A DNA stretch of 24,000 bases, from contig CAKXIK010000019.1 of NCBI GenBank assembly GCA_934875675.1, positions 21,894 to 45,893 on the forward strand, in the 5' to 3' direction. The stretch comes from an uncultured bacterium (GTDB lineage: Bacteria > Bacillota > Clostridia > Oscillospirales > Acutalibacteraceae). The notes beneath the pieces are model-generated. The model did not search any database. It saw only the letters and a program-made list of their open reading frames with translations, and was not told the origin of the DNA. This document shows positions 3,633 through 24,000 of this stretch, piece after piece; the first letter of the stretch is position 1, and each line of letters starts with the position of its first letter. Both the position numbers and the translations under genes were made by a program.

Positions 3633-3662
3633 GCAATTGGGTCACGAAAAGAGGGATCAGCC

Positions 3663-7380: not shown

Positions 7381-7970
7381 TTTTCTTGCGAAGGGGAGCT
7401 TTGCTCGTCGAGTGTCAGAGAATAGGACGGAAGGAAGTTTTCGCAGAAAAAGCTTACGCTTTGCAGGGTGCTTTTTTGCAGTGCATTGCGGAGAGAAACC
7501 TCCGCGCTGGCAAAATCCTGATTCCCCATCCGCTGCTCTTCAATGCACTTAATTAGGGCAGAAAGCTTGTCGGCTGCTTTCACAATCTCCTTTTCTCGCC
7601 CTTCCTCGCGCAGCAGCGGGTCATAAATTGCCCGAAGCTCCTGCGGAAGCATTGCAAGCAGCCGATTAGCGGCGGCGTTTTCCACATTCCGATAAGCTTC
7701 GCGCAATTCGGTGCTATAATATTTTACAGGGGTCGGCAAATCACCGGTAATGATTTCGGTGGTATCATGAAAAAGTGCCAGAGCGGCTGCGCGGTCAGGG
7801 TCATAATCCCCGCCAAAATACTGGTTTTCAATCACCGCAAGCGCATGTGCCAGCACGGCGGTTTCGTGGCTGTGCTCACTCAGGCTTTCGTGGTGTGTGT
7901 TGCGCATCAATCCCCAGCGGTTGATGTGCTTCATGCGTGAGGTCATGGCAAAAAAATGATGATTTTTCAT
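7377..7970 (-). CDS. yfbR: HD-domain 5'-deoxynucleotidase, YfbR-like
   Basis: MKNHHFFAMTSRMKHINRWGLMRNTHHESLSEHSHETAVLAHALA...LFHDTTEIITGDLPTPVKYY aligns closely by eye with E. coli YfbR as I recall it ([28 protein letters not shown]...YHDASEVLTGDLPTPVKYF). Confidence 0.85.
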   Translation of the reverse strand: MKNHHFFAMTSRMKHINRWGLMRNTHHESLSEHSHETAVLAHALAVIENQYFGGDYDPDRAAALALFHDTTEIITGDLPTPVKYYSTELREAYRNVENAAANRLLAMLPQELRAIYDPLLREEGREKEIVKAADKLSALIKCIEEQRMGNQDFASAEVSLRNALQKSTLQSVSFFCENFLPSYSLTLDEQSSPSQEN

Positions 7971-8074
7971 TTTGCGGTCTGTCCTTTCGGAAGATGATGG
8001 TCTGCCGTTTCAAGATCAATTGGCATTACGCGGCAAGGCAAGCCGTCAAGCAATTGCTTGTAATTTTTGAGGGG

Positions 8075-9007
8075 ATGCAGAAGATGGGAATGGTAAAACC
8101 AAAATTTAACCGTCGCATGCAAAAAAATGCAGCAACGTTTTTTGATCCGGCATCCGATGACGATTTCAAAAAAGCTCACCCGATCGGGTATGGTTTTCTG
8201 GTAACGATCGGAATCATTGCGCTGATGCTTCCTCTTGCTGTTTATTTATGGTTAACAAAGGTTTACAATGCGCCAAACAGCGGATGGATGATGCTCGGCT
8301 TGGTCGGATGCTTTACCATGGGAGTTGGATTGTTCAATGTGGTTGCTGCATGGATTCACCAATATTTAGGGCATTGGGTGACAATCGGTTGCCTTTTGGT
8401 CGGCGGGTTTATGACGGCAGCAAGCATTTGTCTGATGTTTGACGTTCGGTTGTACCGACTGTTTGATGAGGATATGGTGAGTTTTTATTTTCTCCTCCTG
8501 CTTTTTCTTTGTTTGTTACCGATTTATTACGTCGGGTTTCGATTTGCAATCGATACATGGTTTCAAGCAAAGAAGATACGAAGAGCGAAAATCAATCAAC
8601 TTAAAAAGGGAATGCGCAATTTTTGGTGGTATGAAAAACTTCGCAGGGAAGCAGGGATGAGTCCCGTGATATACTATTGTAATAAGTTTTTTACAATGGT
8701 GTATCCTGCAGCGGTCATACTACATCTTCTATTTGGTTGGATCAAGGCAGTTTCGGTTCCGGTGTCTGCGTTGTTTGTTTTGTCCTGCCTTGCAGCTGCC
8801 GTTATGAAGGTGTTTGAAATAATAGAGTATAATCGGGATTATTATGGGTGTTCGATCGTCTTAATAGGGCGCAGCGCAAATCGAGGGATTGATTGCATCG
8901 TTCTTGATATTATCTCCGTCTTACTTCCGCTGATTGTGGCGTATTGTGAACTAATTATAATGACGGAACTTTGGAAGCTGCCCATTGATTTAAGATGGTG
9001 GCTGTAA
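8075..9007 (+). CDS. Hypothetical polytopic membrane protein (about 8 TM)
   Basis: ORF 7937..9007. Its 5' part overlaps the yfbR start and looks non-coding. Likely starts are the ATGs at 8075/8084/8090 behind GAGGGG. There are multiple long hydrophobic segments and no motif I recognise. Confidence 0.55.
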   Translation: MQKMGMVKPKFNRRMQKNAATFFDPASDDDFKKAHPIGYGFLVTIGIIALMLPLAVYLWLTKVYNAPNSGWMMLGLVGCFTMGVGLFNVVAAWIHQYLGHWVTIGCLLVGGFMTAASICLMFDVRLYRLFDEDMVSFYFLLLLFLCLLPIYYVGFRFAIDTWFQAKKIRRAKINQLKKGMRNFWWYEKLRREAGMSPVIYYCNKFFTMVYPAAVILHLLFGWIKAVSVPVSALFVLSCLAAAVMKVFEIIEYNRDYYGCSIVLIGRSANRGIDCIVLDIISVLLPLIVAYCELIIMTELWKLPIDLRWWL

Positions 9008-9044: not shown

Positions 9045-9917
9045 ATGAAAAAGCGTAGTTTGGCGTACTTGCTAATGCTTTTCCTGTTTTTGAGTCTTAC
9101 TCCCGCGGCTGTAAGGGCAGACAGTGCACCCAGCCCCCGTATTCAGGTTCATTTTGAAGGAATGGAAAGTGAAACATATTTTGTAACATTGCTGGTTTTG
9201 CCGGATGATTGGGACGAGCGGGACGGCATGAATAATTTTGATGGGAATGACGAACGGCGAATCTGGGAAAAGTTTAATGCCTTTTCAGACCCGGATAGGT
9301 ATCGTTTTACAGGATCATTTGAGAACTGCTCACAAACTCACTCCTATACGTGGGGTAGTATTCCACCCCAGCAATATAAAATTTTGATTTATTTTCCGGA
9401 ACACGACAAGCTGGCAATCAGTGCACCCTGCCGTCCGTATGCATTCAGCAGCTATTACACGATTACGGTGGACAAGGACGATTTCTCCGTATCAAATCAA
9501 ACGGTATTGGGGTTGTCTGTGCGCCGATCGTATGATTACACCAGCGAGATTATTTCTATGCTTTTGCGGATTTTTCTTACCATTGCTGTGGAGTTTGGAA
9601 TTGCATGGATTTGCGGATTCCGCAGTCGCAGTCAGGTAATCGTTATTTTGGTGACAAATATTTTGACGCAAACAATCCTGAATGTGTTGCTTAATTTAAT
9701 TGGATATCGGTATGGTCTGTTGAATCTCATTCTCAATTATGTTTGGGTTGAAATAGTAGTATTTCTGATTGAGGGAGTTGTTTACGCCAGACTCTTACCT
9801 CGTTTTTCGGAAAATCCAGTCAGAGAAAAGTCTCCTTGGGTTTATGCTGCGATTGCAAATACGGCCTCATTTTTTGCGGGGGAGTTAATTGCATGTATTT
9901 TTCCGGCTTTTCATTGA
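9045..9917 (+). CDS. Hypothetical protein: signal peptide, extracytoplasmic domain of about 150 aa, C-terminal 4-TM module
   Basis: An AAAGGAG SD lies 7 nt upstream. The N-terminus MKKRSLAYLLMLFLFLSLTPAAVRADS is signal-peptide-like. The C-terminal hydrophobic helices contain membrane-embedded glutamates (TIAVEFGIAW, VWVEIVVFLIEGVVY, FFAGELIACIF). Confidence 0.6.
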   Translation: MKKRSLAYLLMLFLFLSLTPAAVRADSAPSPRIQVHFEGMESETYFVTLLVLPDDWDERDGMNNFDGNDERRIWEKFNAFSDPDRYRFTGSFENCSQTHSYTWGSIPPQQYKILIYFPEHDKLAISAPCRPYAFSSYYTITVDKDDFSVSNQTVLGLSVRRSYDYTSEIISMLLRIFLTIAVEFGIAWICGFRSRSQVIVILVTNILTQTILNVLLNLIGYRYGLLNLILNYVWVEIVVFLIEGVVYARLLPRFSENPVREKSPWVYAAIANTASFFAGELIACIFPAFH

Positions 9918-10133: not shown

Positions 10134-11435
10134 ATGGCACATGTTCAAATCAAAAAACAACAAGTGTGGTGGGTGCTGGCAGCGGTTTTGCTGTTCGCCG
10201 CAATCACAAGGCTGCTGCTTGCAATGACTTACCTCAATTCATTTGATACGGAGTGGTATCTCAAATGGGCGGTGGATATTCAGAATGGGCTGTTCAATGC
10301 GTATGACGGTCATGTTCGGGATTTGGACTACCCCCCCATTTATCTGATTTTGTTGTGGCCGGTCGGCAGACTGCTCAACATTGATCTTTTGGCGACCTAT
10401 CAGCCTTACCGCATGCTGCTGATTAAGTTTTGGCCGATTCTGTTTGATTTGCTCACGGTGGCAGCGATTTACCTCATCTTCCGCAAGCGTTCGGTGTTTT
10501 TGGCGCTCTGCGCAGCGGCTGCATGGGCGGTCAATCCTTCGGCAATCTTCAATTGCTCCTGTTGGGGGCAAACGGATACAATAATGACCTTTCAGCTGCT
10601 GCTCGTGTTTGCCGCATTTGATGAAGACAAGCCGCTTTGGGGCACGTTCTGGTTTGCACTGGCAGCCTTGACAAAAATGCAGTGCCTTTACTTTGCGCCG
10701 GTAATTTTGTTCTGGTTTATTCGCAGACAGGATTGGAGCCGGCTGTGGCGTGCGCTTGCAATCGGCTTCGGAACGGTTCTGGCAGGATTCTTGCCGTTTA
10801 TGATTGCAAGTAAAAATATGCTGGCGATTTTTCAAATCTACTTCGGCGGGTTTGGAAAGTATCCCTATATCAATCTCAATGCGTTTAATTTGTTCGGCTT
10901 GGGTGATTTCAACTGGGTAACGGATGAGCTTTCCATTATTGGCGGAAGCCCGAATGCGGATGGACTCATGGTGGGCGGATTCACATTTTCCATGCTGGGC
11001 ACGATCCTGATGCTTGCCTCCATTGTGTTCGTGTGTTGGATGATGCTGGCGGCGAAAAAGACGAATATCTGGCTGCATGCTGCACTTTTGATGCAGTGCC
11101 TGTTTATTCTCACCACCCGGCAGCACGAGCGATATCAATTTATTGTCATGATTCTGTTGCTGGGAGCGTTCCTGACCGAGCAGGATTTCAAAATTTTCGG
11201 ATTGTTTGCAGGTGTTTCGTTTGTCACATTCTTCAATCAGTCACTGCTTCTTGATAAAATTATTCATAAGGATGCGCCCTATATTGCATCCTTCAATGCG
11301 CTGCAGGCTGTCGGTTCGGCAATGAATGTGGTGCTGTTCTTCTGTACCGTTGCACTCTGTGTGATGCATACACAGGGCTTGCGACCGGTGTTTGGCAAAA
11401 AACAACCCGAACGAAAGGTGGAATCCGTTTCATGA
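10134..11435 (+). CDS. GT-C fold integral-membrane glycosyltransferase (Gpi18/PMT_2/DUF2029-like)
   Basis: 433 aa and polytopic. The first-loop acidic motif and following block (YLNSFDTEWYLKWAVDIQNG...LDYPPIYLILLWP) are typical of polyprenyl-phosphate-sugar-dependent GT-C enzymes. The stop overlaps the yfhO start (ATGA at 11432-11435). The family call is from memory of motif patterns. Confidence 0.6.
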   Translation: MAHVQIKKQQVWWVLAAVLLFAAITRLLLAMTYLNSFDTEWYLKWAVDIQNGLFNAYDGHVRDLDYPPIYLILLWPVGRLLNIDLLATYQPYRMLLIKFWPILFDLLTVAAIYLIFRKRSVFLALCAAAAWAVNPSAIFNCSCWGQTDTIMTFQLLLVFAAFDEDKPLWGTFWFALAALTKMQCLYFAPVILFWFIRRQDWSRLWRALAIGFGTVLAGFLPFMIASKNMLAIFQIYFGGFGKYPYINLNAFNLFGLGDFNWVTDELSIIGGSPNADGLMVGGFTFSMLGTILMLASIVFVCWMMLAAKKTNIWLHAALLMQCLFILTTRQHERYQFIVMILLLGAFLTEQDFKIFGLFAGVSFVTFFNQSLLLDKIIHKDAPYIASFNALQAVGSAMNVVLFFCTVALCVMHTQGLRPVFGKKQPERKVESVS

Positions 11436-14005
11436 ATTACTCCGCGAAGCTCGGCTCACCAAAAAAGTGGTGGGAAAGCCGTGCGTTCCGTGCATTTGCA
11501 TTGGGGCTTGGCTGTTCGTTTTTGTTTTTTATCCCGTTTATTATTTTTGACCAGGGATATTTTCTGTTTTACGGTGATTTCAATGTGCAGCAGGTGCCGT
11601 TTTACCAGATGATTCACGACGCAATCCGCAGCGGGGACATCGGTTGGAGCTGGACGACGGATCTCGGGGTCAATCTGATCGGATCCTATACGTTTTACAA
11701 TCTCGGGAGCCCGTTTTTCTGGATTACACTGCTGTTCCCGAGTGCAGCCGTGCCGTATCTGATGGGGCCGCTGCTGATGCTGAAATTTGCATTTTCTGCG
11801 CTTTCGGGTTATATTTACCTGCGCCGCTATGTAAAAAATCCTGATAATGCCGTGCTGGGCGGATTGCTTTACGCATTTTCCGGTTTTGCCGTTTACAACG
11901 TCTTTTTTAATCATTTTCATGAGGCGATTATTATTTTCCCGCTGCTGCTTGCCGCGTTGGATGAGTATATGGAGACTGGGCGGCGCGGATTGTTTGTGCT
12001 CGCGGTGTTTGCTTCGTGCCTGATGAATTATTATTTCTTTGCGGGTCAGGTGGTTTTCTGCTTTATTTACTGGATTATCCGTGTTGCGACCGGAAGCTGG
12101 AAAAATGTCACGCTGCGCCGGTTCGGGTGGTTGGCATTTGAGTCCGTGCTGGGTGTTGCAATGACAGCGGTGCTCTTGCTGCCAACGGTGCTTGCGGTAA
12201 TGCAGAACAGCCGTGTCAACAGTCCGACCTATGGCTGGGGCGCACTGCTCTATGGCAATGAGCAGCGGTATCTGCATATTCTTTCATGCATGTTCTTCCC
12301 GCCCGATATTCCTGCGCGTGCTAATTTTACGCCGGATTCCAATGCAAACTGGGCATCATTGGGCGCCTGGCTGCCGCTTTTCTCCATGACCGGTGTCTTT
12401 GCATGGATGCAGATCAAAAAAAAGCATTGGAGCAAAAAGCTTGTCGGAACGCTGGTACTCATGGCATTTATTCCGATTTTAAACAATGCATTTCAACTGT
12501 TTAATTCGGCTTTTTATGCCCGCTGGTATTATATGATGATGTTGATGTTTGCTCTGGCAACCGTGCAGGCAATTGAAACGGAGGAAGCAGATTGGCGGCG
12601 TGCATTCCGGTGGACGTTCGGCATCACCGCAGCAATCGCGGTGGGAATCGGCTTAATGCCGAGTAATATTGACAAAACAACCGGGCAGATTTCCTTTGGA
12701 CTTGAAAAATATCCGGAACGCTTTTGGACGTATGTTGCCATCGCATTTTTAAGCTTGCTGCTCTTTTATATTTTGATGCCGCTGATTCGCCGAAATCCCA
12801 AAAAATTTACGCGGAATGCAACGGCGGGTGTGCTGATTATTACCGTAGTCTACGCCGCATATTTCATCGGTCTGGGCAAAACCCAGTCGTATGATACGCG
12901 GAATTTCATTATTCCCTATGCACTCAATAACGGTAAGGATGTTGACCTGCCGGACGAAGAGGGACAGACGCAGAACTATCGCGTAGATTTTTATCAATCA
13001 ATGGACAATATGGCGATGTATTGGCAGATGCCCAGTATTCAGGCATTTCATTCTATTGTACCGGGCTCGGTTATGACGTTCTACCCGTCCATCGGTGTGG
13101 AACGTGGGGTTGGTTCGCGCCCGGATACCACGCATTACGGAATCCGAGGGCTGCTTTCGGTGAAATATCTGTTTGATTACACCGGAGACGGCAACAATTT
13201 TAAAGACGGCGACGCAACGCAGATGCCGGGCTTCACTTATTACGCAACACAGAACGGTTTTGATGTTTATCAAAATAACAATTACGTTCCGTATGGCTTC
13301 ACCTATGACAAAGTGATTACCCGCGCACAGTTTGAGGAAACGGCGCAGGCCAACCGGGAACTGCTCCTGCTCAAGGCAATGATGGTGGAGGATGCAGACT
13401 ACGACGAGGTGTCGCAGGTGCTTTCCCCCATGAGTGAAAATGAGCTGGATGGCCAGACGTATTCCCAGGATGCTTATGCACAGGATTGTGCTGATAGAAA
13501 TCAGCAAACCTGCTATGAATTTTCCTGCGATGGCGGCGGATTTGTTTCAAAAATTAATCTTTCCAAGGAAAACTATGTGTTTTTCAGTGTGCCATATGAA
13601 TCGGGCTGGTCAGCGCAGGTGGACGGAGCTGCAGCGGAGATTGTACCAGCCAATAACGGGTTTATGTCGGTTCTGGTGCCGCAGGGTGACCATACCATTA
13701 CTTTCACCTATAAAACACCCGGTCTTTCTGCCGGATTTTTGATTACGCTGATCTGTGTGCTGATTTTGTTGTTGTACCTGTGGTGGATGCCCAAACGTGA
13801 CGAAAAGATTTCGCTGCGCTTTGCACAAGAAGCTGCCGCCAATGAAAAGATTGCAGCGCAAAACCGTGCGGAACGTGAAGAAAACGGTGAGAAAAATGAA
13901 ACCGATGCATCTGTTGTGATGACAGATATTTCTCTCCGTACGGAAGATGAGCAAAAGATATCCACAGAAGAGTATGTCTCACCGGATGATGAAATAGAAC
14001 CGTAA
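11432..14005 (+). CDS. yfhO: YfhO family membrane glycosyltransferase
   Basis: 857 aa. The N-terminal signature FFIPFIIFDQGYFLFYGDFNVQQVPFYQMIHDAIRSGDIGWSWTTDLGVNLIGSYTFYNLGSPFFW is characteristic of YfhO. It has many TM segments, a large extracytoplasmic C-terminal domain, a final TM and an acidic tail. Confidence 0.85.
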   Translation: MNYSAKLGSPKKWWESRAFRAFALGLGCSFLFFIPFIIFDQGYFLFYGDFNVQQVPFYQMIHDAIRSGDIGWSWTTDLGVNLIGSYTFYNLGSPFFWITLLFPSAAVPYLMGPLLMLKFAFSALSGYIYLRRYVKNPDNAVLGGLLYAFSGFAVYNVFFNHFHEAIIIFPLLLAALDEYMETGRRGLFVLAVFASCLMNYYFFAGQVVFCFIYWIIRVATGSWKNVTLRRFGWLAFESVLGVAMTAVLLLPTVLAVMQNSRVNSPTYGWGALLYGNEQRYLHILSCMFFPPDIPARANFTPDSNANWASLGAWLPLFSMTGVFAWMQIKKKHWSKKLVGTLVLMAFIPILNNAFQLFNSAFYARWYYMMMLMFALATVQAIETEEADWRRAFRWTFGITAAIAVGIGLMPSNIDKTTGQISFGLEKYPERFWTYVAIAFLSLLLFYILMPLIRRNPKKFTRNATAGVLIITVVYAAYFIGLGKTQSYDTRNFIIPYALNNGKDVDLPDEEGQTQNYRVDFYQSMDNMAMYWQMPSIQAFHSIVPGSVMTFYPSIGVERGVGSRPDTTHYGIRGLLSVKYLFDYTGDGNNFKDGDATQMPGFTYYATQNGFDVYQNNNYVPYGFTYDKVITRAQFEETAQANRELLLLKAMMVEDADYDEVSQVLSPMSENELDGQTYSQDAYAQDCADRNQQTCYEFSCDGGGFVSKINLSKENYVFFSVPYESGWSAQVDGAAAEIVPANNGFMSVLVPQGDHTITFTYKTPGLSAGFLITLICVLILLLYLWWMPKRDEKISLRFAQEAAANEKIAAQNRAEREENGEKNETDASVVMTDISLRTEDEQKISTEEYVSPDDEIEP

Positions 14006-14057
14006 CAATGCGGAGGGGATTTGATATCCGCCCGTGCAATAAAGAAGGGTCGAGATT

Positions 14058-15011
14058 GTGATGGAGAAAAACACCGTTTATCTGGTAGTGCCGTGTTATA
14101 ATGAGGAGGCGGTTCTGCCGGAAACAGCAAAACGGCTGCAGGAAAAGCTTCGCGGAATGATGAAAGCAGGCAGGGCGGCAGCCGATAGCAGGATTCTTTT
14201 TGTCAATGACGGCAGCAAGGACAAAACATGGGAGCTGATTGAACAGCTCCATCAGCAAAGTGAGCTGATCTGCGGCATCAAGCTTTCCCGCAACCGCGGA
14301 CATCAAAACGCACTTTTGGCAGGGCTGATGGCAGCAAAAGAAAATGCAGCGTGTGCCATCTCGCTTGATGCGGATTTGCAGGATGACATTGAGGTTCTGG
14401 ACGAATTTATGGACAAATACCTGGATGGTTGCGACGTGGTTTACGGCGTACGCAAAAAGCGCGAAACTGATACCTTCTTTAAGCGTACCACGGCGCAGGG
14501 TTTTTACAAGGTGATGAAGGCGATGGGGGTGGATGTGGTTTATAATCATGCCGATTACCGCTTGATGAGCCGCCGTGCATTGGAGGGTTTGGCAGAGTAT
14601 AAAGAAGTCAACCTGTTCCTGCGCGGTATTGTTCCGCTGATCGGTTATCGTTCGGATTATGTTTACTACGACCGCCACGAACGCTTTGCGGGCGAGTCCA
14701 AATATCCTCTTAAAAAAATGCTTGCCTTTGCAATGGATGGCATTACATCCTTCAGCGTGAAACCCCTCAAGCTGATTTCGAATTTGGGGATTCTGGTTTC
14801 TGTGCTCAGTGTAATCGGGCTGCTTTATGCGCTGATTGCAAAGTTGTGCGGTGTGGCAGTGCAGGGATGGACTGCAATTGTTGCTTCCATCTGGTTGCTC
14901 GGCGGGCTGCAAATGCTCTGTTTGGGCGTGGTGGGAACGTATATCGGCAAAATTTACAGTGAAGTGAAGGCTCGTCCGCGGTATGTGGTCGAGGAATTTT
15001 TGAAGAAATAA
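14058..15011 (+). CDS. GT2 polyprenyl-phosphate glycosyltransferase (GtrB/CsbB-like), with 2 C-terminal TM segments
   Basis: VVPCYNEE, NDGSKDKT, LSRNRGHQNALLAGL, DADLQDD and ERFAGESKY, plus two C-terminal TM helices, give the classic GtrB/CsbB architecture. The start is GTG 14058 or ATG 14061 behind AAGAAGGG. Confidence 0.85.
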   Translation: MMEKNTVYLVVPCYNEEAVLPETAKRLQEKLRGMMKAGRAAADSRILFVNDGSKDKTWELIEQLHQQSELICGIKLSRNRGHQNALLAGLMAAKENAACAISLDADLQDDIEVLDEFMDKYLDGCDVVYGVRKKRETDTFFKRTTAQGFYKVMKAMGVDVVYNHADYRLMSRRALEGLAEYKEVNLFLRGIVPLIGYRSDYVYYDRHERFAGESKYPLKKMLAFAMDGITSFSVKPLKLISNLGILVSVLSVIGLLYALIAKLCGVAVQGWTAIVASIWLLGGLQMLCLGVVGTYIGKIYSEVKARPRYVVEEFLKK

Positions 15012-15018
15012 TAAAGTT

Positions 15019-15107
15019 GGCGAAGTCTTGCTTTATACTAATTCCGCAGATTTTTATTTATTGTTTTAAGAGGAGTTAGTGTTGCACAAGATTTCGCCGC
15101 TTTTTTT
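15019..15107 (+). terminator. Candidate operon terminator: long-range stem (GGCGAAGTCTTGC / GCACAAGATTTCGCC) with a loop of about 52 nt, followed by a T7 run
   Basis: Arms at 15019-15031 and 15084-15098 give 13 pairs, with one G-U and one bulge. An inner ACTAA/TTAGT extension is possible. TTTTTTT lies at 15101-15107. The structure starts 8 nt after the GT2 stop. The loop is unusually large for an intrinsic terminator. Confidence 0.35.
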
Positions 15108-15320
15108 GTTTAAAATACTTCTATTTCTTGAATAAATTATGCGCGCCGCGAGGCAAAAGCGGTACAAAGAATCCGTATCGTAAAATCTAAATATAAAAAA
15201 ATGTAATTTATGGAAAAGAAATCGTGAGCGTTGTATAAAAGTAATAAAGAAAAGTAGCTGTAAGAACGGAAAAGCAGCAGCAAAGAAGCAAAGAAAAATG
15301 GCAAAAATTTGTTTTTGCGC

Positions 15321-15348
15321 TTGACAAATTATCAAATGGTACTACAAT
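15321..15348 (+). promoter_or_regulatory. Near-consensus sigma-A promoter TTGACA-N16-TACAAT driving the riboswitch leader
   Basis: TTGACA at 15321-15326 and TACAAT at 15343-15348, about 55 nt upstream of the aptamer. Confidence 0.55.
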
Positions 15349-15402
15349 AGATTATAGGATAATAATAAAAGAATAGAACGGGTTGGTTGTGTTCTTTTGG
15401 AT

Positions 15403-15494
15403 GATCGAAAATAGGGCAAATCTGTCGAAAGGCAGTGGCGCAAAGCTATAGGGTCTGAATGTGCATTTGTACATATGACTGCCAGCTGCATCGA
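15403..15494 (+). promoter_or_regulatory. c-di-GMP-I (GEMM-I) riboswitch aptamer
   Basis: The sequence is ATAGGGCAAATCTGTCGAAAGGCAGTGGCGCAAAGCTATAGGGTC...GACTGCCAGCTGCATCGAT. It has a GGCAAA start, a 5-bp hairpin capped by a GAAA tetraloop (CTGTC-GAAA-GGCAG), the conserved CGCAAAGC core and a second stem GGGTC/GAC.GCC, then AGCTG. Compare the V. cholerae Vc2 aptamer, GGGCAAACCAUUCGAAAGAGUGGGACGCAAAGCCUCCGGCC. Closing helix ATCGA (15403-15407) / TCGAT (15490-15494). No covariance-model score was obtained. Confidence 0.75.
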
Positions 15495-15526
15495 TTTTTG
15501 TGGATCGTTTGCAGATGTTTAGACTT

Positions 15527-15552
15527 GAGCGCCGTGACCGGGCGCTTTTTTG
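15527..15552 (+). terminator. Intrinsic terminator, the riboswitch expression platform
   Basis: AGCGCC (15527-15532) pairs with GGCGCT (15541-15546) across an 8-nt loop, followed by TTTTTGTTT. It sits between the aptamer and the first ORF start at 15576. Confidence 0.65.
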
Positions 15553-15575
15553 TTTGGCGGAAAGTGAGCTTTACC

Positions 15576-16190
15576 ATGCTGATATTCTTTTTTCTGGCGT
15601 TGTTGGTTGGTCGGCTGCAGGGCAGGCAGGTGAGCACCGTTTTTTACCAAAAGTGTTTGATCCCGTACTTCATTCTTGAATTTTGCTACATCGGTGTGCA
15701 GTTTTCCACCTTTTGCGGATATTACGGATTTATTCCGTATGCCGAATGGATTAAGCGGCTTTATTTTCTGGTGCTGTTGGTTCCGATTTTGGTACATCAG
15801 CTTTATGTACCCGCAATTGCAGGTGCAGGTTCGGTCGCGGTGGGAACCCTGCTCAACCGGGCGGTGATGAATGCTAACGGCGGAAAGATGCCGGTGTTCG
15901 CAACGCTTGCCCGTTGGACAGGCTACTATACATCAGACTTTTCCGCAGTGGGAGATACAATTCACATGGCGGGAGATTCCACGGTAAAGCTGGCGTTTTT
16001 GGCAGATTATATTGATCTTGGATACTGTATTTTAAGCGTTGGAGATTTGCTGGTGCATGCATTTACGTTTATTATCGTGTATGCGCTGGTTCGTAAGGTT
16101 TGTCCCATGCGGGACAAGCAAATGCAGCGGTCAAAAATGGATGCCGAGGATGGAACAATCGGTCATAAATGCGGAAGGAAGAACAAATGA
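15576..16190 (+). CDS. DUF5317-like integral membrane protein
   Basis: ORF 15459..16190. Its 5' 117 nt cover the riboswitch and terminator, so I start at ATG 15576 (MLIFFFLALLVGRL). LNRAVMNANGGKMPVF and ILSVGDLLVHAFTFIIV resemble the DUF5317 conserved blocks (N..VI.ANGG.MPV ... S.GD.L) as I recall them. Confidence 0.55.
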   Translation: MLIFFFLALLVGRLQGRQVSTVFYQKCLIPYFILEFCYIGVQFSTFCGYYGFIPYAEWIKRLYFLVLLVPILVHQLYVPAIAGAGSVAVGTLLNRAVMNANGGKMPVFATLARWTGYYTSDFSAVGDTIHMAGDSTVKLAFLADYIDLGYCILSVGDLLVHAFTFIIVYALVRKVCPMRDKQMQRSKMDAEDGTIGHKCGRKNK

Positions 16191-16711
16191 TGCAAATTGT
16201 TGCAAAAGTCCTTTTTGAGTACATTTTATGCTACCTTGCACAGTCCTTTATTATTACGATGGGGCTTTTTGCGTTTTGTCGTAAAAAGATTGTCCAGCCC
16301 GAATTTTTAATCGCCTCCGGCATTATTTTTGCAGGCTCTGTCATTGTTCGCAATTTGCCGATCAGTTATGGTGTGCCAACGCTGTTTATTATGATGATCA
16401 CTGCGTTGGTGAGCATTTGGTACTTAAAGTTTCCGATCAATCTTTCCATTCGCAGCGCATTGTTTATGACATTGATTCTGTTTGCGGGCGAAATCGGCAA
16501 TATTTTATTTTTAAAATTGATTTTAGGAAATGAGCGGTTTGCACAAGTGATTAATGACGCAGAAACCAAGTTTATTTATGCAATTCCGTCCACAGTGATT
16601 GCATTGGTTATTACGCTGGTTTATTATATTGTTCAGGAAAAAAAGCATGCACTGCAAATTTCTCCGGAAAAGCAGGATCAAACGGAGGATACTACATGGA
16701 ACAATTTTTAG
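16187..16711 (+). CDS. Hypothetical polytopic membrane protein (about 5 TM), translationally coupled between the DUF5317 gene and agrB
   Basis: ORF 16169..16711. I prefer the ATG at 16187 (GGAAGGAAG SD 6 nt upstream), which forms an ATGA overlap with the upstream stop. About five hydrophobic helices are followed by a hydrophilic tail. No family recognised. Confidence 0.55.
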   Translation: MMQIVAKVLFEYILCYLAQSFIITMGLFAFCRKKIVQPEFLIASGIIFAGSVIVRNLPISYGVPTLFIMMITALVSIWYLKFPINLSIRSALFMTLILFAGEIGNILFLKLILGNERFAQVINDAETKFIYAIPSTVIALVITLVYYIVQEKKHALQISPEKQDQTEDTTWNNF

Positions 16712-17331
16712 ACCGATTGTCAGATACAATTGCAGAAAGACTGCATTATGATAAAAATCAGCAGGCGGTTGTGCGCTATGGGTTAGTAGCACTTTCACAA
16801 ACGGTTATTATTTTTTTTCTGCTTGTTATTTTAGGACTTTGCTTTGGTTTCTTTGCCCAAGCGCTTGCAGTGTTTTTTTCGGTTGTTCTTTTGCGCAAGC
16901 AGGAGGGCGGTGCCCATGCCTCTTCTTTGACAGGGTGTTTGATTCTTACCAGCCTTGTTCTGACGGCGTTGGCGGTACTTTCCCGCTATGTTTTTCCGTT
17001 GGCGGGTTCGGTCGCTGCAATGATTTTGATTGTGGTGCTGGGAGTCGTTTGTGTTCTGATTTCCTACCGGCTTGTCCCGGTAGAATCTCCGAATAAACCG
17101 CTTCGCGATCCGAAAAAAATTGCCCGGTTGCGGAGAAATACGTTTTTGCTGCTTGCCGTTTACCTTTCCGCCGCATTTTTACTCGCATTACCAAAGGATG
17201 TTCTGCCGTTTTCTTCTGTGAGCATCGCATTTGCGATTCTTTCCGGAACGGTGTGGCAGACATTCACACTGACAAAACCGGGTCGGTGGCTCGTGGATAA
17301 AATGGAGCTCCCGTTCCGGCGTTTTAATTGA
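16696..17331 (+). CDS. agrB: Accessory gene regulator protein B (AgrD-processing membrane endopeptidase)
   Basis: 211 aa. It has the AgrB-like N-terminus and the catalytic block RKQEGGAHASSLTGCLILTS, with His and Cys 7 residues apart as in S. aureus AgrB H77/C84. There are four or more TM segments and a basic C-terminal region. A GGAGGA SD is present. The start overlaps the upstream gene by 16 nt. Confidence 0.85.
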   Translation: MEQFLDRLSDTIAERLHYDKNQQAVVRYGLVALSQTVIIFFLLVILGLCFGFFAQALAVFFSVVLLRKQEGGAHASSLTGCLILTSLVLTALAVLSRYVFPLAGSVAAMILIVVLGVVCVLISYRLVPVESPNKPLRDPKKIARLRRNTFLLLAVYLSAAFLLALPKDVLPFSSVSIAFAILSGTVWQTFTLTKPGRWLVDKMELPFRRFN

Positions 17332-17382
17332 TCCTAACGGAGTTTTCCGTTAGAATAAAAAATTCTTGAAGGAGGAATTGTC

Positions 17383-17508
17383 ATGCTGAAAAACAAAATT
17401 TTGGGAGTTGTTGCTGTAGCCGCAACATTCCTGGCGTCCATTGCTGCTACCTCCGCCTGCCTCTGGTTTATTTACCAGCCGGAAGAGCCAGAATGCCTTT
17501 CTAAATAA
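17383..17508 (+). CDS. agrD: AgrD autoinducing-peptide precursor (41 aa), missing from the ORF track
   Basis: A GGAGGA SD at 17371-17376 lies 6 nt before the ATG. The translation is MLKNKILGVVAVAATFLASIAATSACLWFIYQPEEPECLSK. It has an amphipathic N-terminal leader, a Cys-containing core and an acidic, proline-containing tail. It lies 51 nt downstream of agrB. It closely resembles C. perfringens AgrD (...TSACLWFTHQPEEP...) as I recall it. Confidence 0.8.
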   Translation: MLKNKILGVVAVAATFLASIAATSACLWFIYQPEEPECLSK

Positions 17509-17552
17509 GGCAATTTGCTTTTCCGTAGGAGGAGAATTTTACACAGCAGGAC

Positions 17553-17672
17553 TCGCACAAAAGGAACCGCAGCTTTTGGAAAAAGGCTGCGGTGCCTTTT
17601 GTATTACGGGGAAATTTGGAACATTGTCACATATTTGAGAAAAAGTAATGAGTCGCAAGAAAAGGAACCGCA
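17553..17672 (+). repeat. Direct repeat TCGCA-N1/2-AAAAGGAACCGCA, two copies about 100 nt apart
   Basis: Copy 1 is at 17553-17571 and overlaps the left arm of the agrD terminator. Copy 2 is at 17653-17672. The 13-mer AAAAGGAACCGCA is identical in both (17559-17571 and 17660-17672). Confidence 0.6.
17563..17603 (+). terminator. Intrinsic terminator after agrD
   Basis: GGAACCGCAGC (17563-17573) pairs with GCTGCGGTGCC (17586-17596), with one mismatch and a 12-nt loop. TTTTGTATT follows. Confidence 0.7.
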
Positions 17673-17849
17673 ATCATTAAGTAGTTGGCTTGTAAGCAGA
17701 TTCTTTCTTTTGTCTGCCATTATCAAAAGATTAGTGTTGCTCGAATCAAGAGATTTCAGATTTTTTTAACAGAAATTAATATGAATTTCGATTGAAACGA
17801 TAGATAAAAATCTTTGGAAAAATCGCGTAGTTCCAAGCTTATTCCTTGA

Positions 17850-17884
17850 TTCTGATACTATTTTATTGAAAATCAGTATCAGAA
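17850..17884. promoter_or_regulatory. Perfect 10-bp inverted repeat TTCTGATACT-N15-AGTATCAGAA just upstream of the GGDEF/HD-GYP gene
   Basis: Arms at 17850-17859 and 17875-17884. The repeat ends 16 nt before the GAAAGGAAA SD of the gene starting at 17918. Confidence 0.35.
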
Positions 17885-17917
17885 GGTATTCTTTGACACA
17901 GAAAGGAAATCTGCGCT

Positions 17918-19585
17918 ATGACTGATTTTGAACGCAGGAGAAGCCAAAAACTAAAAATTATTTTATTTACCTTGAAAATTTTAACAATTCTTTTTTCGGC
18001 GGTTCCGGTGTTTCAAAAAATTTTTCCTCAGGGAGCAACCACTTTTCCAACGAGTGATTACACCAGCACGTTGTTTGCAGAACTGTTTACCGGAGCGGTT
18101 ATCGGTTTAATCATGTTGCTCTGGAGAATGCTCAACAAAGGAAATGTGCGCAGCCGGTTTTATACGGTGTTGGAACTGAGCATATTCTTTCTGCTGATGA
18201 TGCTGGCGGTTTTTTGCAGCGGAGGTCCTACCAGTTCCTATAAATTTTTGTTTTTGTATTTAATTATTTCTCATGCAATTGAATATGGAATTAAGATGGG
18301 ATTTATCGTTTCGGGAATTTCATCGATTCTTGTGCTGGGAACCGATGCATGGGGATTAATCAATCAGGTTCCCGGAAGTTACTTGGAAAACGACATTGCA
18401 ATGATGGCAATGTTTATTTCCATTGCATGGACGTTGGGCTACTATTCCTCAATGGGGGGTCGTTTTATTGAACTTCTCAAGGAACACGCCAATCGGGACG
18501 GACTAACATCCAGCTACAATCATCGTTACTTTTTTGAGGTGTTCGAGCAGGATTTTGAGGAAAGCCGCAGGGATGAAAAAAAGCTCTGCATCGCCATGCT
18601 GGATATTGACCATTTTAAGGAATTTAATGATACCTATGGCCATCAAAAGGGCGATGCCGTGCTGGTACGCGTTGTGAATGAGATGCAGCACTACTTTTCC
18701 ATGACAGATGGAATTTTTCGATATGGTGGAGATGAGTTTGCGGTGATCCTGCGTGACATGTCATCGAAGCAGGCTTGCGAACTGACAGATGCCTTTCGTA
18801 CACACATTGCATCCACGCTCTGTGTGGATGAAGCGGAAAATCCATATCATGTCAAGCTGACGATCTCCGTGGGTATAGCAGAAATTTCACCTTCTATGAA
18901 TAATTATATGGACATGATCGGCAGAGCGGATACGGCACTTTATAATGCAAAATTCCTCAACCGCAACCGTGTAGAGGTTTTTTCTTCCTTGTTTGAGGAA
19001 ATTGATAATTCCGCTGACCTGAAACTGCACAATACGCTCACCTCTATGCGTGCATTGATTTCTGTTATTAATTCGCGCGATGATTACACCTATAATCATA
19101 CCAACCGCGTGGCGAAGTATTGCTGGATGATGGCGCGCCAGTTGGGTTTGAACCGTGACGATGCCAGAACACTGATGGTGGGCGCTTATTTGCACGATTT
19201 GGGCAAGATTAATTATCAAAAAGGTTTGCTGATTGCAGAATCGCCGCTGACCGATGAAGAGTGGGCAGAGCTTAGGAAACATCCCGTTTATGGTGCCGAA
19301 ATCGTGCGGCAGATTGGCGGATTCGAAGATGTTGTTACGTTGATCTTGCAGCATCACGAGCGTTATGACGGCAAAGGCTATCCATATGGTCTTTCAGGGG
19401 AAAAACTCAGCCGACTTTCCCGTGTGCTGACCATTGCAGACTCTTACGATGCAATGGTCAATGACCGTCCGTATAAAAAGAAAAAAACACAGGAGCAAGC
19501 GATTGCCGAATTGGAACGCTGCTCCGGCACACAATTTGATCCCGATCTTGTACAGGAATTTATCCGTATGATTAAAAATATTTGA
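17918..19585 (+). CDS. Membrane-anchored bifunctional c-di-GMP enzyme: N-terminal multi-TM domain + GGDEF diguanylate cyclase + HD-GYP phosphodiesterase
   Basis: 555 aa. The first 190 aa or so contain about 5-6 hydrophobic helices. GGDEF domain: RDGLTSSYNHRYF...MLDIDHFKEFNDTYGHQKGDAVL...FRYGGDEFAVIL. HD-GYP domain: HTNRVAKY...GAYLHDLGKI...HHERYDGKGYPYGL...IADSYDAM. Both catalytic signatures are intact. Confidence 0.9.
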   Translation: MTDFERRRSQKLKIILFTLKILTILFSAVPVFQKIFPQGATTFPTSDYTSTLFAELFTGAVIGLIMLLWRMLNKGNVRSRFYTVLELSIFFLLMMLAVFCSGGPTSSYKFLFLYLIISHAIEYGIKMGFIVSGISSILVLGTDAWGLINQVPGSYLENDIAMMAMFISIAWTLGYYSSMGGRFIELLKEHANRDGLTSSYNHRYFFEVFEQDFEESRRDEKKLCIAMLDIDHFKEFNDTYGHQKGDAVLVRVVNEMQHYFSMTDGIFRYGGDEFAVILRDMSSKQACELTDAFRTHIASTLCVDEAENPYHVKLTISVGIAEISPSMNNYMDMIGRADTALYNAKFLNRNRVEVFSSLFEEIDNSADLKLHNTLTSMRALISVINSRDDYTYNHTNRVAKYCWMMARQLGLNRDDARTLMVGAYLHDLGKINYQKGLLIAESPLTDEEWAELRKHPVYGAEIVRQIGGFEDVVTLILQHHERYDGKGYPYGLSGEKLSRLSRVLTIADSYDAMVNDRPYKKKKTQEQAIAELERCSGTQFDPDLVQEFIRMIKNI

Positions 19586-19600
19586 CCCGGTTATCCGGTT

Positions 19601-19640
19601 CCGTCCGTTTGGAAAATTGCCAAGCGGGCGGCTTTTTTGT
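19601..19640 (+). terminator. Intrinsic terminator after the GGDEF/HD-GYP gene
   Basis: CCGTCCGTTTGG (19601-19612) pairs with CCAAGCGGGCGG (19620-19631): 12 bp including two G-U pairs, with a 7-nt loop. CTTTTTTGT follows. Confidence 0.75.
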
Positions 19641-19864
19641 TGTACAGAGTTTTGTGTGGTGAAGATTGTCTGGTATTTTGTTCGGAATTATTCGGTTTTC
19701 ATTTGGGGTAAAATGTTTTATACTAATACTCATCGGAAGATTATCGCAGTTTCGGAAAAATGTTTCCTTAATTTTTGTGCAAGAAGATTATTCTTTTGCA
19801 GAATCAGGGAATCACACTTTTGCCGTTACAACATGATTCAATGATTTTGAAGGAGGCAGACGAA

Positions 19865-21178
19865 ATGTCCAGTTACCAGACCAGAAAAACTCCTGGCGAT
19901 ACAGAATGGTTTCGCCATGACCGTTTTGGAATGTTCATTCACTGGGGGCTTTATGCGCTTCCGGCGCGCCATGAATGGGTAAAAACATATGAAAAAACAC
20001 CGGAGGAAGTGTATGAGCGCTACTTCCGCCATTTTGATCCCGATCTTTACGATGCGCGCGAATGGGCTCGCCAGGCAAAAGCAGCAGGAATGAAGTATGC
20101 AGTGCTTACCACCAAGCATCACGAAGGCTTTTGCATGTTTGATTCGCAGTATACCGATTACAAATGCACCAATACGCCCGCGGGACGAGACCTGGTGCGG
20201 GAGTATGTGGACGCGTTTCGTGCGGAAGGACTGAAAATCGGGTTCTACTATTCCTTAATTGACTGGCATCACCCCGATTTCCCGATTGATCCGCTGCATC
20301 CGCGCTGCAATGACGAAAATGTGGAGGAACTCAACCGCGGTCGGGATATGCACCGCTATGCCGAGTATATGCGCAATCAAGTGACCGAGCTGCTTACCAA
20401 TTACGGAAAAATTGATATCCTTTGGTTTGATTTTTCCTATTCGAATAATAATCCGCCGGAAAAACCGTGGCTGCGCGGCAAGGGCAAGAAAGATTGGGAA
20501 GCAGAAGAACTGATTGCTACCGCACGCAAGCTGCAGCCGGGCATTATTATTGATAACCGTACCGAAATTGAGCAGGATCTTTGGACGCCCGAGCAGTATC
20601 AACCGCAAAGCTGGGTGCGCCACAAGGAAACCGGAGAGCTTGTTACGTGGGAAGCATGCCAGACATTCTCGGGTTCCTGGGGGTATTTCCGTGATGAAAC
20701 CAGCTGGAAGTCGCCGGAAATGTTGATTCAGATGCTTGTGCAGACGGTTTCCCTCGGCGGAAATCTGCTGATGAACGTGGGACCCACGGCTCGCGGATGT
20801 TTTGATTACCGTGCGCAGGCCGCATTGCAGGTGTTTGCCGACTGGATGAAATTCAATAGTCGTTCCATTTACGGATGCACAATGGCCGAGCCGGAATTTG
20901 TTGCGCCCAACGGCTGTCGTCTGACACAAAGCGAGGACGGCAAACGGCTTTATGTGCACCTGTTCCAATATCCTTATGCATTTTTGGAACTGCCGGGATT
21001 TGGAGGAAAGGTAGAGTATGCACAGTTCCTGCATGATGCCAGTGAAATTCGCTTTACAGAAAACGGCGTGCAGCATTTCGGTGAGGGGCTCAGTCAGGAT
21101 GAGGGACTTCTGGTGCTCAGTCTGCCGGCAGTCAAACCGCCGGTAACCGTTCCGGTCATTGAGCTGTTCCTGAAATAA
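19865..21178 (+). CDS. Alpha-L-fucosidase, glycoside hydrolase family 29
   Basis: ORF 19775..21178. I prefer the ATG at 19865 (MSSYQTRK), with a GGAGG SD about 8 nt upstream. GH29 blocks are present: WFRHDRFGMFIHWGLYALPA, KYAVLTTKHHEGFCMFDS, GLKIGFYYSLIDW, DILWFD, GGNLLMNVGP. Confidence 0.9.
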   Translation: MSSYQTRKTPGDTEWFRHDRFGMFIHWGLYALPARHEWVKTYEKTPEEVYERYFRHFDPDLYDAREWARQAKAAGMKYAVLTTKHHEGFCMFDSQYTDYKCTNTPAGRDLVREYVDAFRAEGLKIGFYYSLIDWHHPDFPIDPLHPRCNDENVEELNRGRDMHRYAEYMRNQVTELLTNYGKIDILWFDFSYSNNNPPEKPWLRGKGKKDWEAEELIATARKLQPGIIIDNRTEIEQDLWTPEQYQPQSWVRHKETGELVTWEACQTFSGSWGYFRDETSWKSPEMLIQMLVQTVSLGGNLLMNVGPTARGCFDYRAQAALQVFADWMKFNSRSIYGCTMAEPEFVAPNGCRLTQSEDGKRLYVHLFQYPYAFLELPGFGGKVEYAQFLHDASEIRFTENGVQHFGEGLSQDEGLLVLSLPAVKPPVTVPVIELFLK

Positions 21179-22740: not shown

Positions 22741-22843
22741 TGCCGCAATCATTCCTTTCCGGAACAAACTGAAATTGTTATTATAAAATCAGTATAGCAT
22801 ATTTCCCGGGCAAAGCAAAGATAAACAAAGAGACACGGACTTC

Positions 22844-22872
22844 TTGCGCCTGACATTGCTTTGTGATAAAAT
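22844..22872 (+). promoter_or_regulatory. Candidate sigma-A promoter for ychF: TTGCGC-N17-TAAAAT with an extended-10 TG
   Basis: TTGCGC at 22844-22849, TG at 22864-22865, TAAAAT at 22867-22872. Confidence 0.4.
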
Positions 22873-22993
22873 AAGCAAAGACCGCACACGGACAAAAGAA
22901 CTGCAAAACAGAGCAGAATGTGCGCAAAAAGTGAACCGTAATTTTTCGGAAGTTTTGTTCCCTATGATTGTTCAGAATAAAGGAGTTTTTTAA

Positions 22994-24000
22994 ATGAAGC
23001 TTGGAATCGTTGGTTTGCCGAACGTCGGCAAGAGTACCCTGTTCAATGCAATTACCAATGCGGGCGCACAGTCTGCAAACTACCCGTTCTGCACCATTGA
23101 GCCGAACGTCGGTGTGGTTGCCGTACCGGACGAACGTCTTGACCGGCTTGCCGAGATGTACCATCCGGAAAAATATACCCCGGCGTCCATCGAGTTTGTG
23201 GACATTGCCGGTTTGGTTCGCGGTGCAAGCAAGGGAGAGGGTTTGGGTAATAAGTTCCTCGCAAATATCCGCGAGGTGGATGCCATTGTGCATGTGGTGC
23301 GCTGCTTTGTCAACGACGATATCGTGCATGTGAATGGCAGCATTGACCCCGCACGCGATATTGAGACGATTAATCTGGAGCTGGGGCTTTCCGATTTAGA
23401 AATGATCGAGCGCCGCATCGATAAAACCCAGAAGCTGCTCAAGGGCGACAAAAGCTATCAGGTGGAGCTGGAGCTGCTTGGCCGCGTGCGGGATGCGCTC
23501 AATGAAGGCAGATCGGTTCGTACAGTGGAATGTACCGATGAAGAGGCGGAAATCCTTTCCACTATCGCGCTGTTGACCAACAAGCCGGTTATTTATGCGG
23601 CAAATATGAGCGAGGCGGATTTCTCGGCTGGAATTGAGAAGAACCCCTATCTTGGAATTGTGGAAAAGATTGCAGCAGAGGAAAACGCTGCCGTGCTGCC
23701 CATCTGCGCCGAGATTGAGGCTGAAATTTCGGGCATGGAACCGGAAGAAAAGGAAGTTTTCCTTGCAGATATGGGGCTGAAAGAATCCGGGCTTGATCGC
23801 CTCATTAAAGAATGCTACAGCCTGCTTGGGTTGATCTCCTATCTCACCGCAGGTCCGCAGGAGGTTCGTGCATGGACAATTACCCGCGGAACTAAGGCAC
23901 CGCAGGCAGCGGGTAAAATTCACACGGATTTTGAGCGCGGATTTATTCGGGCCGAAGTGGTTGCATATAATGACCTCATGGCATGCGGAACCATGGCAGC
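22994..24000 (+). CDS. ychF: Redox-regulated ATPase YchF (Obg-like GTPase family); 3' end lies beyond the window
   Basis: Absent from the ORF track because there is no stop in the window. An AAAGGAG SD is followed by the ATG at 22994. The translation MKLGIVGLPNVGKSTLFNAITNAGAQSANYPFCTIEPNVGVVAVPDERLDRL...IEFVDIAGLVRGASKGEGLGNKFLANIREVDAIVHVVRCF...TAGPQEVRAWTI..GTKAPQAAGKIHTDFERGFIRAEV is near-canonical YchF. Confidence 0.95.
   Translation, partial: MKLGIVGLPNVGKSTLFNAITNAGAQSANYPFCTIEPNVGVVAVPDERLDRLAEMYHPEKYTPASIEFVDIAGLVRGASKGEGLGNKFLANIREVDAIVHVVRCFVNDDIVHVNGSIDPARDIETINLELGLSDLEMIERRIDKTQKLLKGDKSYQVELELLGRVRDALNEGRSVRTVECTDEEAEILSTIALLTNKPVIYAANMSEADFSAGIEKNPYLGIVEKIAAEENAAVLPICAEIEAEISGMEPEEKEVFLADMGLKESGLDRLIKECYSLLGLISYLTAGPQEVRAWTITRGTKAPQAAGKIHTDFERGFIRAEVVAYNDLMACGTMA

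Follow-up and report, generated by a model that had tools for sequence, protein, structure and literature searches.

A probable agrD gene closing an orphan agrBD operon in an uncultured gut clostridial genome, and a candidate sensor encoded downstream of it

The agrD gene and its operon

The window analysed here, a stretch of 24,000 nucleotides from an uncultured bacterium of the Acutalibacteraceae (assembly GCA_934875675.1, contig CAKXIK010000019.1, positions 21,894 to 45,893 of the forward strand), contains between its positions 17383 and 17508 an open reading frame (ORF) for 41 amino acids. We conclude, with a probability of roughly 0.88, that this ORF is agrD, the gene for the ribosomally made precursor of a cyclic autoinducing peptide (AIP), and that it is the last gene of an operon in which it follows the genes for a DUF5317 protein, a small membrane protein and AgrB. 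The features of the operon are the following.

15576..16190, + strand: gene for a DUF5317 membrane protein, the positional homologue of Clostridium perfringens CPE1563 (Pfam PF17248, E 1.1e-18)
16169..16711, + strand: gene for a small multi-pass membrane protein, here called TM180, the positional homologue of CPE1562 (173-180 amino acids, depending on the start chosen)
16696..17331, + strand: agrB, for the membrane peptidase/cyclase that acts on AgrD (Pfam PF04647, E 5.9e-36)
17371-17376, + strand: Shine-Dalgarno sequence GGAGGA, read directly, with a 6-nucleotide spacer (ATTGTC) to the agrD ATG
17383..17508, + strand: agrD, 41 amino acids, with a leader (residues 1-25), a predicted ring C26-I30 (CLWFI) and a tail (residues 31-41, YQPEEPECLSK)
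17566..17603, + strand: intrinsic-terminator-like hairpin (17566-17593) closing the agr operon, a 12-pair stem ACCGCAGC...GCTGCGGT followed by GCCTTTTGTA

Translated from the ATG at 17383 to the stop codon that ends at 17508, the product is MLKNKILGVVAVAATFLASIAATSACLWFIYQPEEPECLSK. The original prediction had given these coordinates and this sequence, together with a GGAGGA 6 nucleotides upstream and a distance of 51 nucleotides from the end of agrB to the ATG, and all of them proved exact on re-reading; agrB is on the same strand. A lone ORF carries little weight here because short ORFs are abundant, with 81 of at least 30 amino acids overlapping positions 14000-21000. Its reality as an agrD gene follows instead from a family hidden Markov model (HMM), from codon changes that are dominated by synonymous ones, and from homologues in other genomes. 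Comparison with AgrD family models had been proposed as a check, and the NCBIfam model TIGR04223 (quorum_AgrD, described as 'AgrD family cyclic lactone autoinducer peptide') matches the ORF over model positions 1-38 of 38 and scores it at 53.8 bits, well above its cut-off of 19 (E 1.4e-14); the experimentally studied AgrD of C. perfringens, which served as a control, scores 52.3 bits on the same model. The prediction that the ORF encodes AgrD is thereby upheld, as it also is by purifying selection and by the AgrB encoded next door, which has its catalytic residues. In the latter protein R67, G72, H74 and C81 are spaced identically to R70, G75, H77 and C84 of Staphylococcus aureus AgrB, a comparison of spacing and not a structural alignment, and these residues are required for peptidase activity in S. 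aureus (PMC10196373). A search for structural homologues found no solved structure related to AgrB.

The pattern of codon change indicates that agrD is under purifying selection. In a second lineage, represented by two homologous loci (L051:3001-3126 and L053:2764-2889) whose agr region and flanks are 77% identical in DNA to those of the window, the same 41 amino acids are encoded with six changed codons, all of them synonymous. The agrD of L002 differs from that of the window by seven synonymous changes and a single non-synonymous one, which lies at ring position 2; taking L002, L013 and L045 together there are 5-7 synonymous and 1-3 non-synonymous codons, with ring position 2 always among the latter. 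NCBI, JGI, ENA and Logan assemblies already contain the identical peptide, which public records call as a gene and name 'hypothetical protein'; the longest contig with it measures 3,050,848 bp (GCA_964261755.1). Recognition of the gene as agrD is a correct and ordinary gain in annotation within a known family.

Like that of C. perfringens, this locus is an orphan agrBD and not a complete agrBDCA system. No HisKA/HATPase or LytTR protein was detected when 18 larger ORFs of the window were scanned with Pfam, a scan that did not extend to three ORFs of 123-182 amino acids at 22781-23923. With no AgrC/AgrA pair found in the window, sensing must depend on some other component. A promoter-like match (TTGATC, 17 nucleotides, TAGAAT; 9/12 positions) is located in the gap between agrB and agrD at 17328-17356; it is weak, and it might give transcription of agrD that is independent of the riboswitch described below.

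Several points count against the identification of the ORF as an AgrD precursor in a working signalling system. The case for agrD in this organism is built from sequence, and for its peptide there is a candidate receptor only. The ORF also falls below the threshold of the Pfam model PF05931 (Staphylococcal AgrD protein), with 12.9 bits against 22.7. We consider this miss to be uninformative because the model, in a control run, had no match to the validated C. perfringens AgrD either and is evidently too narrow. The open reading frame itself, its membership of the family, its conservation and the layout of the operon were observed directly.

Relatives of AgrD and the predicted signal

A word-indexed protein search with the 41-residue query returned three near-identical peptides only and missed the C. 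perfringens AgrD, and it was replaced by a scan with a degenerate DNA pattern, the back-translated motif C-x-W-F-x-x-Q-P-E-E-P, over one genome per species in 185,579 species. The scan gave 47 matches, 45 of which are AgrD-like precursors, the other two lying inside long unrelated ORFs (approximately the chance expectation). Counts for the family are given over 46 sequences, that is, the 45 homologues and the AgrD of the window, and the constancy of W, F and QPEEP among them is no evidence as these residues were imposed by the search pattern. They share a general frame: a basic N-terminus, a hydrophobic stretch rich in Ala, Val and Thr, then A-[ST]-[ST]-A, the ring C-x-W-F-x, and the tail [YH]-Q-P-E-E-P-x-[CS]-L-x-x(-x). 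The core of it, a Cys-led ring of five residues before an acidic tail with Pro and Leu, is conserved in 46/46. Wherever upstream sequence is present, each of the 45 homologous loci also has agrB paired with agrD. Two further relatives, with the rings CSFAF and CFWGH, were obtained by another route. One clostridial-type agrB-agrD-sensor locus (L047, its AgrD identical to that of L037) is on a 1.8-kb contig labelled Rikenellaceae (Bacteroidota), a label that is probably a binning error.

Two details of the original prediction need correction. The leader had been described as amphipathic, which it is not clearly, since its helical hydrophobic moment is 0.16 (mean hydrophobicity 0.46); it looks more like a basic N-terminus continued by a hydrophobic helix, rich in Ala, Val and Thr, whose last residues before the Cys are the conserved A-[ST]-[ST]-A. 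The second cysteine, in EPECLSK, had been regarded as unusual, and the idea that it is a functional novelty was rejected: among the 46 sequences this tail position is occupied 22 times by Ser, 21 times by Cys, twice by Ala and once by Glu, Cys and Ser thus alternating (a close relative has EPKSLSK), and it lies in the tail that AgrB removes.

Across the 46 sequences there are 32 distinct rings, and CLWFI is found in none of the 45 species representatives. L002, L013 and L045, from three other related species, have CFWFI, and metagenomic variants have CIWFI; together with the identical AgrD in the second lineage these suggest shared signals plus a pherotype-like variation at ring position 2.

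The mature signal is most likely a tailless thiolactone, cyclo(CLWFI), with a computed monoisotopic mass of 662.3250 ([M+H]+ 663.3323). Support for a ring of five residues comes from the register of the tail, because if cleavage occurs after I30 then tail residues E4, P6 and L9 align with E36, P38 and L41 in the sequence of S. aureus AgrD-I. The numbering published for S. aureus AgrD (C28, M32, D33, E34; PMC10196373) agrees with that sequence. The original prediction had arrived at cyclo(CLWFI) by analogy with the CLWFT of C. perfringens, a reasonable argument, and the C. perfringens core that it had quoted, TSACLWFTHQPEEP, is correct: the C. perfringens locus (L004) encodes MKKLNKNLLTVFAALTTVIATTVATSACLWFTHQPEEPKSLRDE. 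In that species the signal is a tailless five-residue thiolactone, CLWFT, or CIWFT in some isolates (PMC6534674, PMC7300355, PMC7492741, PMC12312760, PMC12828898).

If the homologous systems of S. aureus and C. perfringens are a guide, maturation would proceed in four steps. The hydrophobic leader would carry the 41-residue precursor to the membrane, where AgrB, through its catalytic Cys81 with His74, would cut between Ile30 and Tyr31 and free the tail YQPEEPECLSK with the second Cys. The thiol of Cys26 would then resolve the AgrB acyl-enzyme to form the five-residue thiolactone, and a second protease would trim the leader after the conserved A-T-S-A to yield secreted cyclo(CLWFI). Ring size, a tailless N-terminus, secretion and signalling are all expected here by analogy. 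The near-invariant A-[ST]-[ST]-A before the Cys (ATSA or ASSA directly precedes it in 38/46) suggests a processing site, which would fit a tailless product. On the other side, C. perfringens is the single precedent from which the tailless form is argued, and the A-x-A-like site is suggestive and not proof.

The alternative that survives best accepts the AgrD and proposes that its signal retains an N-terminal tail, for instance TSA-CLWFI, or is converted after its release. In staphylococci the AIPs have an exocyclic tail, 2-4 residues long (PMC12312760), an 8-mer consisting of the 5R peptide and three further residues elicits a response in some strains of C. perfringens (PMC7492741), and the protease that would cleave the leader is a postulated one here. 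We nevertheless consider a retained tail unlikely, because the closest characterised relative, C. perfringens, uses a tailless ring, and because the ATSA/ASSA motif fits a processing site better than it fits part of a variable signal. That the ORF instead encodes a small lipoprotein or the signal sequence of a secreted peptide, with no link to processing by AgrB, is highly improbable. Its basic N-terminus, hydrophobic core and A-T-S-A-C do resemble a signal peptide, and its hydrophobic moment is low, but position -3 is Thr/Ser where a lipobox has Leu/Val/Ile, the Cys has only 15 residues after it, the tail, acidic and rich in Pro, fits the AgrD model end to end, and agrB is always paired with it; on the Thr/Ser at -3 and the match to the AgrD HMM, a lipobox reading of A-T-S-A-C was rejected. 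A chance, untranslated ORF between agrB and the GGDEF gene, for which one could cite the 81 ORFs within 7 kb and a public annotation that is merely 'hypothetical protein', is effectively refuted by the TIGR04223 match, the consensus Shine-Dalgarno sequence, the synonymous-only differences across 77%-identical flanks and 45 homologues in the same position.

The protein encoded downstream of agrD as a candidate sensor

We found by tblastn of the window proteins against the 45 homologous loci that the operon is part of a conserved five-gene cassette, DUF5317-TM180-AgrB-AgrD-6TM-GGDEF-HD-GYP (6TM denoting six transmembrane helices), with identities of about 25-45%. It occurs in Clostridium, including C. 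perfringens, in Sarcina, and in Oscillospiraceae, Acutalibacteraceae, Christensenellales-like, Lachnospiraceae-like and Saccharofermentanales genomes. The DUF5317 gene is conserved upstream of agrB in most loci, and TM180 (150-180 amino acids), for which there was no Pfam or NCBIfam match, is conserved between the two. In C. perfringens strain 13 the counterparts by position are CPE1563, CPE1562, agrB (CPE1561), agrD and CPE1560, and co-transcription of CPE1563-CPE1562-agrB-agrD has been demonstrated experimentally (PMC2706048). The gene directly after agrD has the same N-terminal domain in 43 of the 44 loci in which this could be tested (L017 is without it and L041 is cut off). Its features in the window are as follows.

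17918..19585, + strand: gene for a 6TM-GGDEF-HD-GYP membrane protein of 555 amino acids, a candidate AIP sensor and, by position, the homologue of CPE1560
17918-18472, + strand: part encoding the N-terminal six-helix sensor domain, about residues 1-185
19601..19641, + strand: terminator-like hairpin after this gene, 12 pairs of which 8 are G-C, then CTTTTTTGTT

The 409 nucleotides that separate agrD from this gene show no sequence relationship to the 140-180-nucleotide gaps of the closest relatives. They include a near-perfect inverted repeat at 17850-17884, TTCTGATACT(N15)AGTATCAGAA, 35-70 nucleotides upstream of the start of the GGDEF/HD-GYP gene; this repeat may serve as an operator or form a hairpin.

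The protein matches the Pfam families GGDEF (E 3.3e-39) and HD_5 (E 3.2e-37) and has homologues in the PDB such as 4mcw and 5z7c. With its GGDEF, LHDLGK and HHERYDGKGYP motifs intact it is predicted to be a bifunctional GGDEF/HD-GYP enzyme of cyclic di-GMP (c-di-GMP) metabolism. Copies at other loci are about 555-580 amino acids long, and almost every full-length one has intact GG[DE]EF, HD and HHExxDGxGYP. The PDB matches are limited to the GGDEF and HD-GYP parts, there being no solved structure for the sensor domain, and Pfam gave for that domain sub-threshold hints alone (6TM_PilS, DUF4118, MASE1).

We regard the six-helix domain as a candidate AIP sensor on four grounds: the swapping of its output, the small family with two outputs to which it belongs, a divergence that tracks the ring, and its topology. 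At L018 and L042 the gene after agrD keeps the N-terminal domain (31% identity, E 9e-18) and its output is PAS-HisKA-HATPase_c, and at L057 agrB and agrD are followed by a kinase with the sensor domain, with two further kinase paralogues upstream. Over L057 as a whole (387-8869), a single agrBD is surrounded by a tandem array of three sensor-domain kinases and several small membrane proteins. As for the family, a word-indexed search with the sensor domain gave a single match and was replaced by an exhaustive HMMER search with residues 1-190 against 1.84 billion representatives, which returned 92 clusters at E <= 1e-3. Among the 34 of these that exceed 440 amino acids, 16 have GGDEF and HD domains and 17 have HisKA and HATPase_c.

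The divergence of the sensor was compared with that of the ring in ten non-overlapping sister pairs, by dividing the identity over residues 30-100 by the identity over the catalytic part. Where both members of a pair have the same ring (four pairs) this ratio is 0.93-1.02, and where their rings differ (six pairs) it is 0.38-0.92 (Mann-Whitney one-sided p = 0.0048). Between L005 (ring CSWFT) and L020 (CTWFS), the most extreme pair, identity is 23-43% over residues 31-90 and 93-100% over most of the catalytic part (approximately 180-540). Residues 30-100 are not simply fast-evolving, because same-ring pairs of comparable divergence retain 84-90% identity over them. The topology predicted from hydropathy and the positive-inside rule has the N-terminus inside, six transmembrane (TM) helices and the C-terminus inside, and on it the variable segment starts at the end of TM1, continues through extracellular loop 1 (residues 37-49), TM2 and the first cytoplasmic loop, and takes in TM3.

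If the domain is indeed the sensor, the peptide would be sensed by the 6TM-GGDEF-HD-GYP protein, and not, or not solely, by a kinase of the AgrC/VirS type, and sensing would alter c-di-GMP; the sensor-domain kinases beside agrBD in other clostridia would be a two-component version of the same receptor. CPE1560 would then be a candidate for an 'additional receptor' in C. perfringens. The paper on VirS allows for additional receptors, and reports an unexplained band of ~75 kDa in a pulldown with the signal peptide (PMC7492741). At 65.4 kDa CPE1560 is loosely compatible with that band, a resemblance to which we give no weight. In the open-access literature we found no paper that links agrBD to this sensor gene or, by synteny, to c-di-GMP enzymes.

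There are also arguments against the sensor as receptor. VirS itself has experimental support as the receptor in C. perfringens (PMC7492741), the independent comparisons between rings are few, and the linked hypervariability could be the result of recombination around agrD. Furthermore, two loci have a TM180-like protein and a sensor kinase with no agrBD nearby.

L054:3509-5860: TM180 homologue (28% identity, E 3e-14) directly upstream of a sensor kinase, no agrBD
L058:3018-5345: TM180 homologue directly upstream of a sensor kinase, no agrBD

These two loci led us to reject the proposition that the sensor-domain gene is always beside agrBD, and the conserved pair may be the small membrane protein and the sensor.

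A c-di-GMP-I riboswitch in the operon leader

In the 5' leader of the agr operon we predict a c-di-GMP-I riboswitch. Its aptamer is flanked by a promoter-like site on the 5' side and a terminator-like hairpin on the 3' side, after which comes the DUF5317 start at 15576.

15321..15348, + strand: promoter-like site TTGACA, 16 nucleotides, TACAAT (11/12 consensus matches)
15405..15493, + strand: aptamer of the c-di-GMP-I riboswitch class (Rfam RF01051, 64.5 bits with a gathering threshold of 35, E 9e-11, model positions 1-87 of 87)
15527..15557, + strand: expression-platform hairpin GAGCGCC-GTGACCG-GGCGCTT (-11.8 kcal/mol) and U-run, TTTTGTTTGG

The DUF5317 start is that of public gene calls; a longer ORF, from 15459, would overlap the riboswitch. 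The promoter-like site is a consensus match only, of a kind as numerous across the region as in shuffled sequence; orthologous leaders retain both its -35 and its -10 block. A stretch of 26 nucleotides that overlaps the -35 region (15302-15327) is 85% complementary to 17378-17403, which comprises the Shine-Dalgarno spacer and the first agrD codons; both are A/T-rich and the complementarity is probably due to chance.

The riboswitch is found at the same place in L013 (67.3 bits), L045 (68.6 bits) and L051/L053 (39.2 bits), the order of promoter, aptamer, hairpin and U-run being conserved and the G+C-rich hairpin and U-run present in all four orthologous leaders. Beside the operon in about 40 more distant loci, including that of C. 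perfringens, there was no match to either class of c-di-GMP riboswitch, from which we conclude that the riboswitch is a clade-specific addition.

In which direction would such a switch act? In all four orthologues the core of the aptamer (GGCGC or GACGC...) is complementary to a terminator strand, and ligand binding would free the terminator and make the riboswitch an OFF switch, a direction that we propose with low confidence. In equilibrium folding of the leader in the window, however, the terminator forms with and without an enforced aptamer (P > 0.85 either way), so that minimum free energy (MFE) folding does not decide between ON and OFF. The alternative pairing of aptamer and terminator appears in prefix folds and, among full MFE folds, in those of L013 and L045 only. 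We found no paper that describes a c-di-GMP riboswitch on an agr operon. In a 2026 preprint raised c-di-GMP led to a modest drop in agrB1D1 expression in Clostridioides difficile, with no riboswitch involved.

Taken together with the candidate sensor, the riboswitch would return c-di-GMP onto agrBD expression in this clade, and a second messenger plus an RNA would take the place of AgrA in the autoinduction loop. This joint reading, in which the AgrD peptide is sensed by the 6TM-GGDEF-HD-GYP protein, c-di-GMP changes and the riboswitch feeds back on agrBD, is a tentative one to which we assign somewhat less than even odds.

Other features of the window

Two ORFs on the + strand, 7937-9007 (356 amino acids) and 9045-9917 (290 amino acids), have no Pfam match and lie upstream of a GT87-like/YfhO/GT2 glycosylation cluster at 10134-15011.

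Implications

Cyclo(CLWFI) adds one more predicted autoinducing peptide, from an uncultured lineage of gut clostridia. Being one residue removed from the virulence signal CLWFT of C. perfringens, it raises the possibility that gut commensals may activate or block the regulation of C. perfringens toxins. A larger question is how the signals of orphan agrBD loci are sensed, and here the cassette names a concrete candidate receptor and makes the question testable. The retention of a 6TM-GGDEF-HD-GYP gene immediately after agrD across several orders of Clostridia is part of that nomination. If it is true, peptide quorum sensing would be tied directly to c-di-GMP, and in the clade of the window the riboswitch would close the loop. 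What we propose for the cassette, the receptor and the riboswitch is drawn from sequence comparisons.

Comparison with known systems

The closest characterised system is that of C. perfringens. The two AgrD precursors agree fully in the core TSACLWF and in the tail motif QPEEP and share 53% identity over 38 amino acids, the five genes are in the same order with protein identities of 26-38%, and neither locus has an adjacent AgrC/AgrA. They differ in that ring position 5 is Ile in the window and Thr in C. perfringens, in that the tail of the window peptide is one residue shorter and has Cys where that of C. perfringens has Ser, and in the start of the leader (MLKNK as opposed to MKKLNKN). A c-di-GMP-I riboswitch precedes the operon in the window and none was found ahead of that of C. 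perfringens; agrD is separated from the downstream gene by 409 nucleotides with a terminator in the window and by approximately 50-65 nucleotides in C. perfringens. The host also differs, being an uncultured gut bacterium of Oscillospirales type whose nearest named relative is an Acutalibacteraceae metagenome-assembled genome (L045).

With S. aureus the window shares the general plan of AgrD, a leader, a five-residue ring initiated by Cys and an acidic Pro-containing tail, as well as the spacing of R, G, H and C in AgrB and a signal region that is hypervariable between lineages. The ring-linked variable segment of the candidate sensor resembles in turn the hypervariable AgrB-AgrD-AgrC block of staphylococci. 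Unlike S. aureus, the window has no agrC/agrA in the locus, its agrB and agrD are last in the operon and not first, its leader is hydrophobic rather than clearly amphipathic, and the staphylococcal Pfam model of AgrD is not matched. To the family defined by TIGR04223, on the other hand, the match is full-length and without difference, and it is to this family that the ORF belongs.

For the candidate receptor there is an analogy in Xanthomonas, where RpfC/RpfG couple the quorum signal DSF (diffusible signal factor) to an HD-GYP phosphodiesterase and the turnover of c-di-GMP. The likeness, which concerns the candidate receptor alone, is that a quorum signal would in both cases reach c-di-GMP turnover through HD-GYP. 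In Xanthomonas a separate kinase phosphorylates the HD-GYP protein, which is a response regulator. In the window the membrane sensor domain is fused directly to both catalytic domains, GGDEF and HD-GYP, and a peptide thiolactone would be the signal.

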